From positions 1 to 24,000 of the forward strand of contig JALSIB010000004.1 of the NCBI GenBank assembly GCA_026981855.1: a stretch of DNA of 24,000 nucleotides. Reading direction: 5' to 3'. The notes under the pieces are model-generated. The model was not told the origin of the DNA. It did not search any database and was given only the letters and a program-made list of their open reading frames with translations. Shown one piece after another: positions 3,623 through 9,287 of this stretch. The stretch's first letter is position 1, and each line of letters opens with the position of its first letter. The position numbers were made by a program, and so were the translations under genes. Source of the stretch: Methylothermaceae bacterium (GTDB lineage: Bacteria > Pseudomonadota > Gammaproteobacteria > Methylococcales > Methylothermaceae).

Positions 3623-3698
<76 letters not shown>

Positions 3699-4212: not shown

Positions 4213-5139
4213 CTACATATCAATGCTATCCAGCGCCGATTTTATCGCATTCTCGTCAGGACGTACATATTCCAAGGTGACACGAACATCTGTATGCCCA
4301 AGCAAATATTGCAATATTTGCAGATCCACGCCGGGCAAGGCTGCCAGTCTTGTCGCAAATGTATGTCTCAGTCGATGAGGGCTGATCTTGACTTTCATAG
4401 CTTTGGACAAACGGCGGAAAAATCCAAAAACTTGGGTCGGTGTCATCTCACTACCCGCATAGGCGTCATTGAACAGCTGAATTCGGAAGACCTGTTCATT
4501 ATGCAGCTGTTTCAATGTTTTATGAGAGTATTTTTTACTCATCTCCGCCAAGTAACGAAGCTCCTTCTTGATCCGTCTTGGTATCGGAATCAGCCATTCC
4601 CTGTGGCTCTTGCTTCCTACATAGCTCATCAGGATCGTACCACGATCAAAGTCTATATCTCGCCAGCGCAAGGTCACCAATTGTTGTGTTCTCATGCCGG
4701 TGTGGAGCAAAGTCTTGAAGACAATGAGCCAAAACCAAGCCGGTTTGAATTTATCGGTACCATCACATTTTTCAAGATATTGGATCGCTTCCAGTATGGT
4801 TGGGGAAGAAAGCGTCTTCTTGACCTTTCCACCTTTCATGGGAGCGCGTACCTTTTGAAACGGATTTTCCGTCACGTATTCCTGCTCTATAGCATAGTTC
4901 CACATTGCACGCAATGTTCTTTGATACGTGTGCCACGTTGTTTCCGTTGCTCTTTTCAGCACATCATCTCTCCACGAGATCACCAGATCCAATTTAACCT
5001 CATCGATGTCTTTTGCCCGAGTATCATTGACGAATGCATTGACCACATTCCGGTAACTGATTTCAGTTCTTGGCCTCAAGGCGCTAACACGCAAATATTC
5101 CTCACAAAGTTCCTCTGGTGACACCAGATACTCCTTCAT
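4213..5139 (-). CDS. Tyrosine recombinase / site-specific integrase (XerC/D-like size)
   Basis: 308-aa ORF with the catalytic signature intact: TGMRTQQLVTLRWRDI (Arg), SPHRLRHTFATRLA (H-x-x-R), LLGHTDVRVTLEYV (His, Tyr). It has an N-terminal SAM-like core-binding region. Confidence 0.9.
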   Translation of the reverse strand: MKEYLVSPEELCEEYLRVSALRPRTEISYRNVVNAFVNDTRAKDIDEVKLDLVISWRDDVLKRATETTWHTYQRTLRAMWNYAIEQEYVTENPFQKVRAPMKGGKVKKTLSSPTILEAIQYLEKCDGTDKFKPAWFWLIVFKTLLHTGMRTQQLVTLRWRDIDFDRGTILMSYVGSKSHREWLIPIPRRIKKELRYLAEMSKKYSHKTLKQLHNEQVFRIQLFNDAYAGSEMTPTQVFGFFRRLSKAMKVKISPHRLRHTFATRLAALPGVDLQILQYLLGHTDVRVTLEYVRPDENAIKSALDSIDM

Positions 5140-5175: not shown

Positions 5176-6042
5176 TCAGCGCCCCAAATATACAGAGGTA
5201 ATCTGCTCTCTGTTATGACCCATTTCACGGGATACTTCAAGGCGAGCCTGATGCTCGATAATGCGCTCCCCAGGGGTCAATTGACTTTTCGATGGGCCTC
5301 CCTCTGCGGGAGATTTCCATCCTGTCAGCTCTTCGTAGCGACGCTGGGCATAGGCATGTCTAAGCCCATGGACCTTCGAGAGTCCCGCGTTCTTACATTG
5401 ACGTTCGTAGACCTTAACCTGCTGCACGTAGGATCTGCTTTGAGGAATTAGTGATCCACGGCCAGCCAGACTACGTGCTTTTCTCAATACTTCTCGTTGT
5501 GAGTCTGTGCGAATCGGTACTTCACGACCGCGCCCTCCCTTGCACCAGCTAGGTTTGAGAACAATTTTATCCTCCTTGATGGCATAAGAGGGTTGAAATT
5601 TAATCGCTTCTTCTCTCCTCAGGCCGAATTCTCGTTGCAATTCCAAACTGACTCGCACATAGGGATCGGTGACCTTTGCCAGTTGCTCTTCGTATAACCG
5701 GATCGCCTTGTTTGCCTCGGCAATCACTTGCCTGCGTGGAATGTCATAATGATCATTGCTCTTGGCAATCAACGCCGGCTTGCCCACTTTTTGTGCCCAC
5801 CAACGAAGCACCGTCATCCGATTTTTGAGTGTAGCGGGGGACAATCCTTCTTCCTTCCAGCGTTGCAGCAGAGCATTCACATGGCGCCCCTTAAAACTTT
5901 TGGCACGCATTTTCCGATATCCCATCTCATGCAGCTGATTGGCGCACAGCTGCAATATATGGTGTCGTTGAGCTCGAGTGGCGTATGATCCTTCTGGATA
6001 TCTCTGACACAAATTCTTCAGGTCGTAATTCAAGTCACGCAT
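5176..6042 (-). CDS. Second tyrosine recombinase, Phage_int_SAM_2 + Integrase_1-like family
   Basis: 288-aa ORF with motifs GLRREEAIKF (Arg), HGLRHAYAQRRY (H-x-x-R) and GHNREQITSVYLGR (Tyr). GGAAGGG lies upstream of the ATG at 6042. It sits 36 nt upstream of, and is co-oriented with, the 4213..5139 integrase. Confidence 0.8.
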   Translation of the reverse strand: MRDLNYDLKNLCQRYPEGSYATRAQRHHILQLCANQLHEMGYRKMRAKSFKGRHVNALLQRWKEEGLSPATLKNRMTVLRWWAQKVGKPALIAKSNDHYDIPRRQVIAEANKAIRLYEEQLAKVTDPYVRVSLELQREFGLRREEAIKFQPSYAIKEDKIVLKPSWCKGGRGREVPIRTDSQREVLRKARSLAGRGSLIPQSRSYVQQVKVYERQCKNAGLSKVHGLRHAYAQRRYEELTGWKSPAEGGPSKSQLTPGERIIEHQARLEVSREMGHNREQITSVYLGR

Positions 6043-6436
6043 TATTTCCCTTCCGGCATCAAAACACCATCATCGAAATCGAAATTTAACGCTTAGTTTT
6101 AATGGTCCACTCTCCGGTCATGCTCGCATGACGGAAAGTACCTTCCCGGTCTTGGGACCCTGCTCTCTGCTAAATTCCCTGATCTGACTCGTGCATGACA
6201 GCCGGTGTCTCCTGTTGGGACTGCCGGACGTGTCGGCATTAACGCTCGGTTTCCATAATTCACCTCCTTTGTTTGTTGAACATAAAAAATGGAGGCGCAC
6301 ACGAACGCCGGGGTGAGCGATTTTCCCGGAACGCTGCCGAGGTGGCATGATGCGCCGATTTCCTGGCTAAGAAGAGGTATCCCCAAATCGAGGGATAGCA
6401 TATGAAGCATGGAACCTAAGGCTCCTGGATGAAGAT

Positions 6437-6666
6437 GCCCGAACAGGCGCTTAAGCCTGGTCATCGGATTTTTCGGGCCCGCGATGACGAGGGTGCAGGC
6501 CTATTGCCTGCGGGGGTACAGCTTTGACCCAAGCTGCCAAGGGCTAACGCGGGTTCAATTTTGTACGGATTTAATCCGTATTGTCAAGTATTGTCGTCCC
6601 ACCCCTCATTCTCCCTTGGATTGGGCCGCTGTCCCTACCGCACTTCGTGTGGTAGGGACAGCGGCC
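6437..6666. other. Hairpin-dense structured non-coding segment (candidate oriT / recombination site / structured RNA)
   Basis: Consecutive stem-loops: 6437-6443/6472-6478 enclosing 6444-6459 (caggc-gcttaa-gcctg); 6495-6511 (gcaggc-ctatt-gcctgc); 6519-6536 (cagctt-tgaccc-aagctg); 6565-6579 (acggat-tta-atccgt). A tandem direct repeat GTATTGTC lies at 6578-6585 and 6588-6595 (10-bp phase), followed by a 20-bp stem at 6624-6666. No convincing ORF is present. Confidence 0.4.
6624..6666. repeat. 43-nt near-perfect inverted repeat (20-bp stem, 3-nt loop)
   Basis: ggccgctgtccctaccgcac-ttc-gtgtggtagggacagcggcc. There are 19 Watson-Crick pairs plus one position that is G-U on a plus-strand transcript and C-A on a minus-strand transcript. 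No U-tract follows on either strand. Confidence 0.85.
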
Positions 6667-7075
6667 AACTCCCTGTCCAGGGGGGTATCATACGGCGACG
6701 TTGTTGCATAATTCCCAAGTTCCAGATGCCGGCGCCTAAGGGGAGGCAGCATTCAGCGAGGGGTTGGTAGTGCGGGCGGTGTTCCATCTGCCACTTCGGG
6801 CCTTAGAAAGGGTGGGAACGGGAGAGCAGGCACCCATCGTCGTTCCCAGGTGGAAACACCTTCTTCCGCCTCAAGATGTTGTTCGGTGACCGGCTCAGAA
6901 ATCGCCGAATAACCCTCGGTATGCCTGAATCCGTGCTGCTGACTGCATGACTACATGAAAGCTGAAAACGCCAGGAGAGACCCATTCATGCCGGAGTTAT
7001 GCAACAAAGCCTGTTGGCGACAGACTTTTTCCAGTACATGATTACCACACCGATTTCGAGAAGGAAACCCACAAA

Positions 7076-8101
7076 ATGAAAGCGTTTCTCTCCTCGCTCC
7101 CACAAATTTTTCGCCCAAAAAATGAGACGACTTTTCCGTCTGACAGGTCGAAAAAATTATCGCCTGCTGAATCTGAGTTAGCTAATATTGCTGCTGTTAC
7201 TGACGAAGTTTTTTATAAATTTTACCGACCTCCACTCATGAATTTTTTACGCCTATTTGAAACGGAAATCGACATTTATACACGTCTTTTTCAATCACTT
7301 CGGTTACGGGAGAGCGTCATTTTACCTTCTGGTTCCGATCCTCATATTGTGGCAGAACGCCGAGACGCATGGACTTACGGCGTCTTTTTGGCAGCATTAT
7401 TTGTTGATGCCAACCACTGGCCAGAATTACTCCAAGATCGATGTCCGTGGGGAGAGGACTTCACGTCGAAAACTGGTATCGCGAACAGGCACCCGCTATC
7501 CGGGTTCTGCATCGCATTATCATTGGTGCCAACGGCGGGATTGACCTGGTTATGGCAAGACGCAGAACTCTGGACAGAATGGGTAGGAGCGTTGCTAGGA
7601 GAATCACGGGGTAGCGGAGAAATTTTACGCATCGTCCATACCGCTGTTGGGCGGAAAACCTCTAAACCAGATCAACCGGAGTCTCGAGATTCGTCACTGC
7701 CGCAGCCCGGTATGGCAGATATAAATGAGGATACAATTCATGAATTAAAGGCCAACAATGAGAACGATAGGGACGAAAACGAAATTCCGGAAAGAATCTG
7801 TAACGATCCATTCCTGGATTGGCTGAAACGTGAGATAACAGCAGGCCGTATAAAGGTAGATGAAACTGGATTAGTGTACCAAACCGACGCCGGCTTATTA
7901 TTGAGAAGCCCAGAAATATTCAAGCGCTTCGCCGATGAAATCGGTGAGGACTGGCATCGGATACAAAATCGGTTTCTGCGAAGAAGATTTCATTGCAAAC
8001 GTGATGAGGGATCAAATATCCATCGGCTGGACATCAACGGAAAACAAGTCAGCGGAATATTGTTGTCCAAGAAATCAGTTTTGCAAATGCTGGATCTGTA
8101 A
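7076..8101 (+). CDS. TraI_2 / TraI_2_C (DUF1528)-like protein; short MOBH-relaxase-related protein without recognisable HD/His-cluster motifs
   Basis: 341-aa ORF. The C-terminal ~100 aa (DPFLDWLKREITAGRIKVDETGLVYQTDAGLLLRSPEIFKRFADEIGEDWHRIQNRFL...NIHRLDINGKQVSGILL) match my recollection of the TraI_2_C domain of PFGI-1/ICEclc-class relaxases. The N-terminus has only faint similarity (FYKFYRPPL, LPSGSDPH, WTYGVFLAALFVDANHW). An acidic low-complexity linker is present (NNENDRDENE). Confidence 0.7.
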   Translation: MKAFLSSLPQIFRPKNETTFPSDRSKKLSPAESELANIAAVTDEVFYKFYRPPLMNFLRLFETEIDIYTRLFQSLRLRESVILPSGSDPHIVAERRDAWTYGVFLAALFVDANHWPELLQDRCPWGEDFTSKTGIANRHPLSGFCIALSLVPTAGLTWLWQDAELWTEWVGALLGESRGSGEILRIVHTAVGRKTSKPDQPESRDSSLPQPGMADINEDTIHELKANNENDRDENEIPERICNDPFLDWLKREITAGRIKVDETGLVYQTDAGLLLRSPEIFKRFADEIGEDWHRIQNRFLRRRFHCKRDEGSNIHRLDINGKQVSGILLSKKSVLQMLDL

Positions 8102-8133: not shown

Positions 8134-8703
8134 CTATGGGCGTATCGTCAATCTACCCCCCGGTAAATACCGATACAAGGTCGATGGCGCCACGCCTAAT
8201 TTTCTGGCCACTTCCTCCACGGTGATCTCGGGATTAGCCAGAAGCGTCCTGGCCATCTGCAAATCCCGTTCGGTCAGCGCTGGCGGCCGGCCGCCTTTCC
8301 TTCCCCTGGCGCGGGCTGCTTCCAGGCCCGCACGGGTGCGCTCGCGGATGATGGAACGCTCGAACTCGGCCAGCGCGCCGAAGATGTGAAACACCAACCG
8401 TCCGCCCGGTGTCGTGGTATCGATGTTCTCGGTGAGCGACTTGAAGCCGATGCCCCGCTTCTCCAGGTCCTCCACGGTTTCGATCAGCTGCCTGAGGGAC
8501 CGGGCCAGGCGGTCCAGTTTCCAGACCACCAGCACGTCGCCTTCCCGCAGGTAGTCCAGGGCCGCCTTCAGTTGCGGCCGGTCCCGTTGGGCGCCGGAGG
8601 CCTTTTCGATGAAGATGCGCTCACAGCCGGCAGCTTCCAGGGCGTCGGTCTGGAGCCTGGGATTCTGGTCCTGGGTGGAAACGCGGGCGTAGCCGATCAG
8701 CAT
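8134..8703 (-). CDS. Serine recombinase (resolvase / DNA invertase family)
   Basis: 189-aa ORF beginning MLIGYARVSTQDQN (catalytic Ser motif). Other motifs: VVWKLDRLARS, and a C-terminal HTH ending STLYRYLP. A GAAGGGGGG Shine-Dalgarno lies upstream of the ATG at 8703. Confidence 0.92.
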   Translation of the reverse strand: MLIGYARVSTQDQNPRLQTDALEAAGCERIFIEKASGAQRDRPQLKAALDYLREGDVLVVWKLDRLARSLRQLIETVEDLEKRGIGFKSLTENIDTTTPGGRLVFHIFGALAEFERSIIRERTRAGLEAARARGRKGGRPPALTERDLQMARTLLANPEITVEEVARKLGVAPSTLYRYLPGGRLTIRP

Positions 8704-8718
8704 GATGAATGCCCCCCT

Positions 8719-8958
8719 TCAGGCGGCTTGAGGCCAGTATAGGATTTCGACTTCCGTCCGATTCCGCCTGGCGTTCTGGACCAGGCCTTCCAATTGCCTG
8801 GCGGTTTCCTCACCGATCCAACTTTCGCCACATTGGCGGCACACTTTGGCGGGAACCTTGCGGACCACGATAAGGCAAGACTCCAGATCGACAGCGAACG
8901 TGGTCTGCCCCGGTTCTTTATCCCCTCCACAAAGGGGACAGCGATCAATCGAATTCAT
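8719..8958 (-). CDS. YgiT-type zinc-ribbon protein (MqsA N-terminal-domain-like), putative antitoxin
   Basis: 79-aa ORF with CPLCGG...CRQCGE (a four-Cys zinc ribbon) and no HTH domain. Its start overlaps the stop of the upstream DUF4258-like gene (ATGA at 8955-8958). Confidence 0.75.
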   Translation of the reverse strand: MNSIDRCPLCGGDKEPGQTTFAVDLESCLIVVRKVPAKVCRQCGESWIGEETARQLEGLVQNARRNRTEVEILYWPQAA

Positions 8959-9287
8959 GACTTCCTTGTTTTCCAGTCCATTTCGAACTTGTCCGGGCTA
9001 GGACGGTAAGCGGTGATGACATGACAGATCCCGTTGTTCTGCTCATCGAATGCCACGACCACATGCAAAGGATCCTCGCCGACGATATGTAATAACAGGC
9101 CGGCGGGAACCGGATAGGCGTCGGGATAGAATTCCACAATTTCGCCTTCCAGAATGGCCTGTTCCACCGATTCCATGCGGATGCCGCTCGTCAACAAACG
9201 CTCCAGTGCATGTTGCTTCCATTCGATGCTGCCAGCGCGAACCGCCTGGCGCACATTTCGCAACCAGGCTTCCCAATCCACTGCCAT
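8955..9287 (-). CDS. DUF4258-like protein, putative toxin of a type II TA pair
   Basis: 110-aa ORF. WKQHALERLLTSGIRMESVEQAILEGEIVEFYPDAYP...LHVVVAFDEQNNGICHVITAYRP resembles the DUF4258 family. It lies in a toxin-first arrangement with a zinc-ribbon partner. Confidence 0.7.
   Translation of the reverse strand: MAVDWEAWLRNVRQAVRAGSIEWKQHALERLLTSGIRMESVEQAILEGEIVEFYPDAYPVPAGLLLHIVGEDPLHVVVAFDEQNNGICHVITAYRPSPDKFEMDWKTRKS

Follow-up and report, generated by a model that had tools for sequence, protein, structure and literature searches.

The non-coding DNA at positions 6043–6690 of the window (the whole 24,000-nucleotide stretch analysed here) is likely to provide the cis-acting and regulatory functions for an MpsA-type (MOBM) mobilisation module with the mobSGI1 layout, within a conjugative element of the PFGI-1/ICEclc type. 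It extends from the start of a gene for an MpsA-like tyrosine-recombinase-fold protein to just beyond a long hairpin (6624–6666) which is a hallmark of this protein family. The DNA folds far better than expected by chance, its stems carry compensatory changes, and the wobble pairs point to folding of the strand that is sense for the MpsA-like gene.

Organization of the gap

The 1-kb gap between the flanking divergent genes (6043–7075) comprises three parts: an MpsA-linked part (6043–6690), an insertion sequence remnant (6805–7011) and the remaining stretches, which are lineage-specific. Alignment of four lineages showed a conserved non-coding block that begins at the gene and reaches about 6 nt past the 6624–6666 hairpin; DNA homology between lineages stops about 6 nt outside it. 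In three related lineages the MpsA-like protein is 92, 82 and 79% identical to that of the window, while the product of the TraI_2_C-like gene on the other side of the gap is 39% identical, a pseudogene and 41% identical, respectively. Since the block tracks the identity of the MpsA-like protein and not that of the TraI_2_C protein, 6043–6690 belongs to the left-hand gene (5176–6042) and not to the right-hand relaxase-like gene, to which an earlier note on this DNA had attached a possible oriT.

Folding of 6430–6700 was compared with shuffled sequences and gave z scores of –6.5 and –6.4 on the two strands, none of 200 shuffles being as good. This segment is single-copy in the 2.75-Mb genome. 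The GC content of the region is 54–58% compared to 43–50% in the three flanking genes. A comparison of the intergenic DNA with plasmids gave zero matches.

The gap had been described as non-coding DNA with no credible open reading frame. Indeed, it contains no intact conserved ORF, and a 5-codon mini-ORF with a strong Shine-Dalgarno sequence was rejected as a conserved coding feature because its ATG reads AAG in one lineage. The description as non-coding is nevertheless incomplete: the gap is not uniform, and 6805–7011 (plus strand) is the decayed 3′ end of a transposase gene, in which the C-terminus with an internal deletion is accompanied by a terminal repeat. This stretch matches contig-end repeats in two same-genus genomes, its translation aligns to a transposase tail and an intact relative matches DDE_Tnp_1 (PF01609, 1.2e-10). 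It belongs to the IS5 family, as a decayed remnant only. A small palindrome, CCCTG-TC-CAGGG (6671–6682), occurs in all four lineages; it is exact in three, has one altered arm position in the same-genus genome G004, and in the other three lineages its distance from the hairpin is about 90–110 nt greater. A tRNA-Thr gene lies near the region, with the tRNA junction on the far side of both recombinase-fold genes.

The MpsA-like protein and its downstream neighbour

The gene at 5176–6042 (minus strand) encodes a protein of 288 aa with a tyrosine-recombinase fold, which matches PF12834 (1.5e-18) and PF12835 (1.3e-13). PF12835 is the published signature for SGI1 MpsA (PMC10484663). Residues R142/R143, H225, R228, H229 and Y285 (R...HxxRH...Y) are invariant in 26 homologues. 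The protein is thus a candidate MpsA-type atypical relaxase (MOBM type) rather than an ordinary integrase. It belongs to a large family of more than 7000 homologues, many of 288 aa, with 571 matches among species-representative genomes. In the common family context, alpA is found downstream of the MpsA-like gene and a separate P4-type integrase adjoins the tRNA.

In the window, a gene for a full-length XerC/D-like tyrosine recombinase (4213–5139, minus strand; 308 aa) starts 36 nt after the MpsA-like gene, and all four related lineages retain it. Its product includes a complete PF00589 catalytic domain together with Phage_int_SAM_5 and is probably the ICE integrase. The trio formed by the XerC-like, MpsA-like and TraI_2_C genes is conserved.

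A hallmark hairpin upstream of MpsA-like genes

All repeats and hairpins listed in the earlier note were found in the sequence where it had placed them. Among these, the structure at 6624–6666 has, as described, a 20-bp stem with one G-T position and a 3-nt loop, and is kept in the related lineages. Its stem includes the box GTCCCTAC and an inverted copy (6631–6638/6652–6659). The family consensus of this box is GTCMCTAC, and box plus inverted copy are present in 75 of the 78 regions examined upstream of MpsA-like genes (positions –464 to –831 relative to the start codon), whereas 2% of shuffles contain them. There is covariation in the outer stem, with 96.7% of cells paired and compensatory changes in 10 of its 15 pairs; none of 500 shuffles scored as high.

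It had been proposed that the plus strand is the one that folds, a preference which rested on the single G-T pair. The wider comparison reverses this: in the conserved stems (four lineages) and the hairpin outer stem (38 sequences), wobble on the minus, gene-sense strand amounts to 18 G-U against 0 A-C. We regard 6624–6666 as the prime candidate for a protein-recognised oriT repeat, the alternative being a 5′ RNA hairpin. Two further possibilities were rejected: the hairpin is not an intrinsic terminator, because no U-run follows it on either strand (the plus strand lacks a T-run after 6666, as does the minus strand after 6624; a terminator scan did not list it), and it is not a REP-like repeated element, being single-copy in the genome.

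A putative promoter and a structured leader

A sigma-70-like promoter sequence directed toward the MpsA-like gene is found at 6558–6587 (minus strand: TTGACA, 18 nt, CAAAAT). Both hexamers are unchanged in all lineages and four spacer positions vary. It is the sole promoter-like site in 5950–7150, a count which alone is at chance level. In the wider family, promoter-like sites cluster 120–180 nt beyond the hairpin on the gene side (28 sites in 77 upstream regions), and sigma-70-type promoters are not enriched upstream of the hallmark hairpin in these 77 regions, where just one site was observed. The invariant hexamers suggest that 6558–6587 acts as a promoter.

The run of stem-loops reported at 6437–6666 is present and most of its members are conserved with compensatory changes, the exception being the hairpin at 6564–6580, which is not kept. 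Those at 6430–6536 form a conserved hairpin and pseudoknot domain on the minus strand. This includes the nested hairpin noted previously (6437–6478), also kept in related lineages, in which CCCGAA/TTCGGG (6438–6443/6472–6477) surrounds CAGGC/GCCTG (6444–6459). An 11-bp stem or repeat (6456–6466/6482–6492), likewise kept, interleaves with CCCGAA/TTCGGG. Two stems are retained beyond it, GCAGGC/GCCTGC (6495–6511), whose variation is a single U-G wobble, and CAGCTT/AAGCTG (6519–6536), and CATCTTCA (6430–6437) is the closing part of the domain. Across five sequences, 98.6% of cells in these stems are paired and 6 pairs are compensatory, compared to 32–40% of cells paired in slid controls; in one further stem, which MAFFT misaligned, inspection by eye reveals 2 compensatory pairs. 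Most of the stems that are kept show compensatory changes; for window-specific stems the support comes from four independent lineages only.

A domain of the same topology, with a strongly covarying pseudoknot, occurs in the structured leader of the wider family. We do not claim that it is homologous to the domain in the window, since the likeness is one of topology alone: a covariance model of the common type found the right place and strand with a non-significant E of 1.2, and BLAST and nhmmer comparisons between the window-type leader and 78 family leaders, run in both directions, revealed no similarity apart from the hairpin.

A second conserved structured block, of about 250 nt (6088–6340, minus strand), separates the hairpin domain from the start of the gene. 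Its identity is approximately 90% across lineages in which the flanking proteins share 59–92%. RNAalifold predicts 74 pairs, 10 with compensatory changes; where pairs vary, the minus strand has G-U and the plus strand A-C. The predicted structure makes this block a candidate counterpart of the sgm-sRNA core of SGI1 or a candidate structured 5′ leader. The covariation analysis of homologous regions that had been recommended thus revealed conserved and covarying stems in the hairpin outer stem, in 6430–6536 and in 6088–6340. The recommended Rfam scan gave no such return: with Rfam 15, 5800–7400 yielded generic hairpin matches only, far under gathering scores, with no match for 6088–6340. Over 15 related loci, Rfam recovered tRNAs and one group II intron and nothing else, and neither these loci nor the window leader showed a match to a hammerhead ribozyme.

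Comparison with mobSGI1 and other MOBM systems

The mobSGI1 module consists of oriT_SGI1, sgm-sRNA, mpsA and mpsB (Kiss et al. 2019, PMC6414798; Nagy et al. 2021, PMC9299015). Its oriT is upstream of mpsA and includes GC-rich inverted repeats in a locally GC-rich stretch, and the interval from oriT to mpsA encodes an essential sRNA that is transcribed in the direction of mpsA. The resemblance is drawn from Pfam family, gene order and distances. Each module encodes a PF12835-type protein with the tyrosine-recombinase fold, HxxRH and a C-terminal Tyr, and its gene is preceded by several hundred nucleotides of locally GC-rich non-coding DNA with GC-rich inverted repeats. In both, a structured conserved block read toward the gene separates the repeats from the gene, a second recombinase-related gene follows directly downstream, and there is a functional link to a MOBH-type protein, here a putative one.

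There are also differences. The position of mpsB is occupied here by the full 308-aa XerC-like recombinase, and not by a short MpsB partner restricted to the core-binding domain. SGI1 is a mobilisable island, whereas the host of the present module is a conjugative element that itself encodes type IV secretion, and a divergent gene in cis specifies the MOBH-derived protein, from which the HD motifs have been lost. Finally, the promoter is downstream of the long hairpin, while P5 of SGI1 is upstream of its 11-bp repeat.

Other MOBM relaxases, TcpM of pCW3 and MobK of pIGRK, are tyrosine-recombinase-derived nickases (PMC8152469; review PMC12857230), an activity for which the protein described here is a candidate by sequence. 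The oriT of pIGRK includes several imperfect inverted repeats and is intergenic, just upstream of mobK and beside its promoter (PMC8152469). However, these proteins are very divergent from one another, an RNA component has not been reported for pCW3 or pIGRK, and pIGRK needs a G-rich tract, which was not seen here.

The wobble asymmetry, which favours sense-strand folding, and the covariation in the structured leader would also be expected if the whole region, including the big hairpin, were solely an RNA leader of the MpsA-like/XerC-like operon (an attenuator or a processing or autoregulatory element), with the oriT located elsewhere. SGI1 itself has, about 650 nt upstream of mpsA and thus at a similar distance, a hairpin which is a terminator-like RNA element and can be deleted without serious loss of transfer, its oriT being nearer the gene. 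We nevertheless consider this reading unlikely. The conserved promoter is downstream of the hairpin, both here and in the wider family, with no enrichment upstream, and the hairpin has no U-run on either strand. Moreover, the SGI1 oriT is within the same leader, and the genome yielded no further candidate for a relaxase or an oriT: in this 99%-complete assembly no TraI_2, Relaxase, TrwC or MobA_MobL Pfam domain scored above threshold. The oriT and structured RNA or 5′ leader functions, both among the roles put forward in the earlier note, fit the evidence and probably both apply.

The TraI_2_C protein and other readings of the repeats

The divergent gene at 7076–8101 (plus strand) encodes a degenerate MOBH-derived protein of 341 aa, which has kept its TraI_2_C domain without the HHH and HD motifs or the central domain. 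The LPASExHHH segment is absent and LLHD has become LFVD. Scores are far below the family cut-offs (TIGR03760, 48 bits for a cut-off of 161; MobH, 44 bits for 200). Judging from these losses, its role is probably that of a partner without catalytic activity. The rest of the genome showed no TraI_2 domain. Among species-representative genomes, no sufficiently close relative of the protein was found. A word-indexed protein search returned only one partial relative (85% identity; 86% in the exhaustive search) on a 1.1-kb contig without the upstream region, and an exhaustive search of the representatives added only three, at 39–48% identity.

In ICEclc/PFGI-1-type elements TraI acts on oriT, and the hairpins might accordingly be the oriT of this MOBH-like protein. 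The element carries PFGI-1-class (ICEclc-type) transfer genes, 7076–8101 combines a TraI_2_C domain with weak TraI_2 and MobH matches, and the hairpin is situated between the two genes in a conserved gene trio. This reading is nonetheless improbable. In addition to lacking the catalytic motifs, the protein is represented by a pseudogene in one lineage, and the non-coding block is near-identical where the TraI_2_C protein is just 39% identical. The hairpin precedes 75 of 78 MpsA-like genes, and a tblastn search of the 80 loci sampled gave no relative of the TraI_2_C protein. Although the ICEclc/PFGI-1-class transfer genes and the TraI_2_C neighbour recall the oriT regions of MOBH elements (ICEclc oriT1/oriT2; SXT and IncA/C oriT beside mobI), the region co-varies with the MpsA-like gene, and neither a MobI-type gene nor 14-bp direct repeats are found here.

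The repeats had also been proposed as arm-type or accessory (attP-like) sites at which the two tyrosine recombinases would carry out integration and excision, and the two adjoining recombinase-fold genes and the nearby tRNA-Thr gene agree with this. We give it a very low probability. The sole direct repeat, GTATTGTC, is present at 6578–6585 and 6588–6595 as reported, but its second copy is not conserved, the first overlapping the invariant –35-like TTGACA. The conserved elements are instead hairpins whose compensatory changes and strand asymmetry imply single-stranded folding, and the big stem has no internal dyad of the core-site kind. The tRNA junction is beyond both genes, and in the common family context it is the P4-type integrase that is found by the tRNA. 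Chance palindromes in a functionless gene-free spacer can practically be dismissed: the GTATTGTC repeat, the 7-bp inverted repeat (ccaaggg 6537–6543/cccttgg 6613–6619, present as noted) and the 6564–6580 hairpin do behave in a chance-like manner, since none is conserved, but for the conserved elements a chance origin is already refuted by the folding z of –6.5, by a block more conserved than the flanking proteins and by a hairpin that 75 of 78 relatives share, compared to 2% of shuffles.

Proposed mechanism and implications

On the minus strand, the MpsA-type module would be read in the order hallmark hairpin (6666–6624), promoter (6587–6558), hairpin/pseudoknot domain (6536–6430), structured block of about 250 nt (6340–6088), MpsA-like gene and XerC-like recombinase gene. 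We suggest the MpsA-like protein as the nickase, which would cut one strand in or close to the hairpin region, with the oriT somewhere within 6430–6690. The leader may be transcribed toward the gene to give a structured RNA which, like sgm-sRNA in SGI1, would be required for transfer or regulate it. The divergent TraI_2_C protein, with its catalytic HD residues lost, may serve as an adaptor rather than as a nickase. More tentatively, and with some doubt on our part, it is possible that MpsA-type relaxases in general use a large uncatalogued structured RNA encoded in the leader and recognise a signature hairpin, with the GTCMCTAC box on its covarying stem, which would fold on a single strand. 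This self-transmissible proteobacterial ICE would then possess a hybrid relaxosome in which a recombinase-like nickase and an RNA act with a dead MOBH adaptor derived from an ancestral relaxase.

Tyrosine-recombinase-like relaxases are usually annotated as "integrases" and elements that use them are consequently counted as non-mobilisable; among the plasmids with a homologue, this is the prediction for 150 of 234. The GTCMCTAC hairpin, 0.46–0.83 kb upstream, provides a cis-site signature which would allow oriT prediction for the MpsA-like family. In SGI1, a helper TraI raises transfer by about 4 logs (PMC13635750), which raises the question of why a MOBH relaxase boosts MpsAB-dependent transfer and what the required RNA does. 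The fixed linkage with a MOBH protein that appears catalytically dead would make the element described here a natural system in which to address it.

Genes flanking the non-coding region and their relatives

The two genes left of the non-coding region, a XerC-like gene (4213–5139) and an MpsA-like gene (5176–6042), are co-oriented and encode proteins with a recombinase fold. The product of the second matches Pfam PF12834 and PF12835. PF12835 is the Burrus group's signature for MpsA, the atypical tyrosine recombinase-like relaxase of Salmonella Genomic Island 1, SGI1 (PMC10484663), whose relaxase class is now called MOBM (PMC12857230). R, HxxRH and the C-terminal Tyr are present in the window protein and invariant in 26 homologues. 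Upstream of mpsA, SGI1 has its 125-bp oriT, composed of GC-rich inverted repeats (PMC6414798). The interval between oriT and the gene encodes sgm-sRNA, an essential small RNA that is cut from a transcript of approximately 700 nt reading toward mpsA (PMC9299015). SGI1 transfer is raised about four logs with the MOBH relaxase TraI of the helper plasmid, a cofactor (PMC13635750).

The MpsA-like family includes more than 7000 proteins, with 571 hits in species-representative genomes, often as several copies per genome. Members are usually found in the order tRNA, P4-type integrase, conserved non-coding leader of about 750 nt, MpsA-like gene, alpA and cargo (L057 1088–4588; also L043 and L075), in up to four copies per genome, and these loci look like small mobilisable islands. 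Of 234 plasmids encoding a homologue, 150 are predicted to be 'non-mobilizable', including 5–15-kb Acinetobacter plasmids; their mobility is probably under-called.

To the right lies the gene for a 341-aa protein (7076–8101) which retains the TraI_2_C domain and whose similarity to MOBH relaxases is weak and sub-threshold. Aligned with canonical MOBH relaxases, neither this protein nor its short relatives have the LPASExHHH segment or the central domain, and LLHD is replaced by LF(V/F)D. A search of the genome with four relaxase Pfam domains (TraI_2, Relaxase, TrwC and MobA_MobL) gave nothing above the family cut-offs. Since the MOBH motifs are also missing, the MpsA-like protein is the only candidate nickase found. 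The simplest reading of the TraI_2_C protein is as a non-catalytic partner, a notable parallel to TraI as cofactor in SGI1.

The window also carries conjugation genes of the PFGI-1/ICEclc class (TIGR03746, 03749, 03752, 03755, 03756, TraC and TraG_N), adjoined by a tRNA-Thr gene. This tRNA-Thr(CGU) gene (3623–3698) is 96% identical to that of the same-genus genome G004 (L031 3950–4028), but the two point in opposite directions with respect to the recombinase genes. The end turned toward the XerC-like gene is the 3′ end in G004, which is the classical arrangement, and the 5′ end in the window. Further right (8134–9287), genes for a DUF4258 protein and a small zinc-ribbon MqsA-like protein, a possible toxin-antitoxin pair, lie upstream of and co-oriented with a serine recombinase gene.

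A composite non-coding region

A homologous gap flanked by the same three genes is found in four further lineages (G004, L112/L113 and L114–L116). The aligned gaps are conserved between the start of the MpsA-like gene and a point about 6 nt past the big hairpin (window 6088–6672). In three lineages, identity to the window is 92, 82 and 79% for the MpsA-like protein and 89, 60 and 59% for the XerC-like protein; the TraI_2_C protein is only 39% identical in the first and 41% in the third, and the second has a pseudogene. The non-coding region therefore belongs with the MpsA-like gene, and there is a sharp mosaic breakpoint at the hairpin's outer edge. Beyond 6088–6672, the sole alignable remnant in the gap is a small palindrome, CCCTG-TC-CAGGG (6671–6682), present in all four lineages (equivalents in L112, L114 and L031) with one arm position differing in G004. 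Its distance to the hairpin is 5 nt in the window and about 90–110 nt in the other lineages, which looks as though some 95 nt had been lost from the window. The segment 6805–7011 is an IS5-family remnant, since it matches contig-end repeats in two same-genus genomes and its translation yields a DDE_Tnp_1 transposase tail that has an internal deletion; a terminal repeat comes after it.

A hairpin conserved throughout the family

All features listed in the earlier note are in the sequence at the coordinates given there: the 20-bp stem with its 3-nt loop (6624–6666), the GTATTGTC pair, the 7-bp bracketing repeat and the nested hairpin. The segment 6430–6700 occurs once in the 2.75-Mb genome (99% complete) and folds far better, on either strand, than shuffles that preserve dinucleotide composition (z −6.5 and −6.4).

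Compared with leaders of 80 more distant loci (proteins 56–61% identical), the window-type leader has no detectable shared sequence except the big hairpin. In 78 upstream regions (76 distant loci, the window and G004) we searched for the strongest hairpin of each region. Most have a long stem with the window's box, GTC(A/C)CTAC, paired to its inverted copy. A relaxed test, requiring the first six box positions and their reverse complement within 70 nt, was passed in 75 of 78 regions and in 2% of shuffled sequences. The hairpin lies at −464 to −831 nt from the start codon (median −662).

An alignment of 38 different copies shows strong covariation in the seven outer pairs of the stem, which lie outside the selection criteria. 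Counting all 15 stem pairs, 96.7% of cells are paired and 10 pairs have compensatory changes; none of 500 shuffles reached this score and slid controls were 28–57% paired. On the gene-sense strand the outer pairs comprise 229 Watson-Crick, 18 G-U and no A-C cells, and the structure therefore matters as the single-stranded minus strand of the window. The plus-strand preference drawn earlier from a single G-T pair is thereby reversed. Several family members (L034, L035, L056, L088, L089 and L095) have another small hairpin, with GGTTAC/GTAACC arms and a loop of 3 nt (7 nt in L089), about 130–330 nt upstream of this hallmark hairpin.

A putative promoter and structured leader

A sigma-70-like site, TTGACA-18-CAAAAT (6587–6558, minus strand), is the only one in 5950–7150, where one is expected by chance. 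Both hexamers are invariant in all lineages and four spacer positions vary. The first GTATTGTC copy is conserved because it overlaps the −35 hexamer, whereas the second is not; the hairpin at 6564–6580 falls within the spacer and so is not kept across lineages. The wider family has a conserved promoter-like element, with an almost invariant TATACT, 120–180 nt downstream of the hallmark hairpin, and shows no promoter enrichment upstream of it.

Downstream of the window's putative promoter are a conserved CAGCTT/AAGCTG stem (two compensatory pairs in L114, seen by eye), a conserved GCAGGC/GCCTGC stem and a conserved pseudoknot, in which an 11-bp stem (6456–6466/6482–6492) is interleaved with CCCGAA/TTCGGG around CAGGC/GCCTG, followed by CATCTTCA. 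Across five sequences 98.6% of cells in these stems are paired, six pairs have compensatory changes and every wobble pair is on the minus strand.

The common-type family domain has the same topology: a hairpin, P2/P3 interleaved around P4, then CCATCTTC. Here 96% of cells are paired, 11 of 18 pairs are compensatory (0/500 shuffles as high) and wobble is G-U 15 versus A-C 2. Its covariance model finds its best match in the window at the right place and strand with an E value of only 1.2, and we therefore call the topologies alike but do not claim homology. In L057-type leaders (e.g. L057 2961–3055; alignments A10/A11), a strongly covarying pseudoknotted domain, absent from Rfam 15, is preceded by the almost invariant TATACT and an AT-rich tract and followed by a repeated CCATCTTC motif; by position, it may be the counterpart of oriT_SGI1 (AT tract plus 7-bp GC-rich repeat).

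Closer to the gene, 6088–6340 is approximately 90% identical across lineages, above the flanking proteins. RNAalifold predicts 74 pairs, ten with compensatory changes, and the pairs that vary read as G-U on the minus strand and as A-C on the plus. Common-type leaders are structured at the equivalent position. The Rfam scan suggested in the earlier note matched none of the hairpins, the pseudoknot domain, the 6088–6340 block or the common-type leaders.

A probable oriT and leader RNA region

On sequence grounds, 6043–6690 is probably the oriT-plus-leader-RNA region of an MpsA-type module. Within it, the hallmark hairpin is the favoured oriT candidate: it is the one feature kept family-wide, has a conserved box and a covarying stem, lies upstream of the conserved putative promoter, and its outer edge coincides with the mosaic breakpoints. 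The SGI1 map, however, argues against it. In SGI1 a hairpin some 650 nt upstream of mpsA is a terminator-like RNA element whose deletion causes no serious loss of transfer, and oriT is closer to the gene, where the window has its pseudoknot domain.

Modules of the MpsA/oriT/sgm-sRNA kind are already known from the literature. Added here are a hairpin signature, with strand asymmetry, that marks the whole family, a fixed set of three genes that includes one for a MOBH-derived protein that has lost its catalytic motifs, and the placing of such a module in a conjugative element with its own type IV secretion genes.
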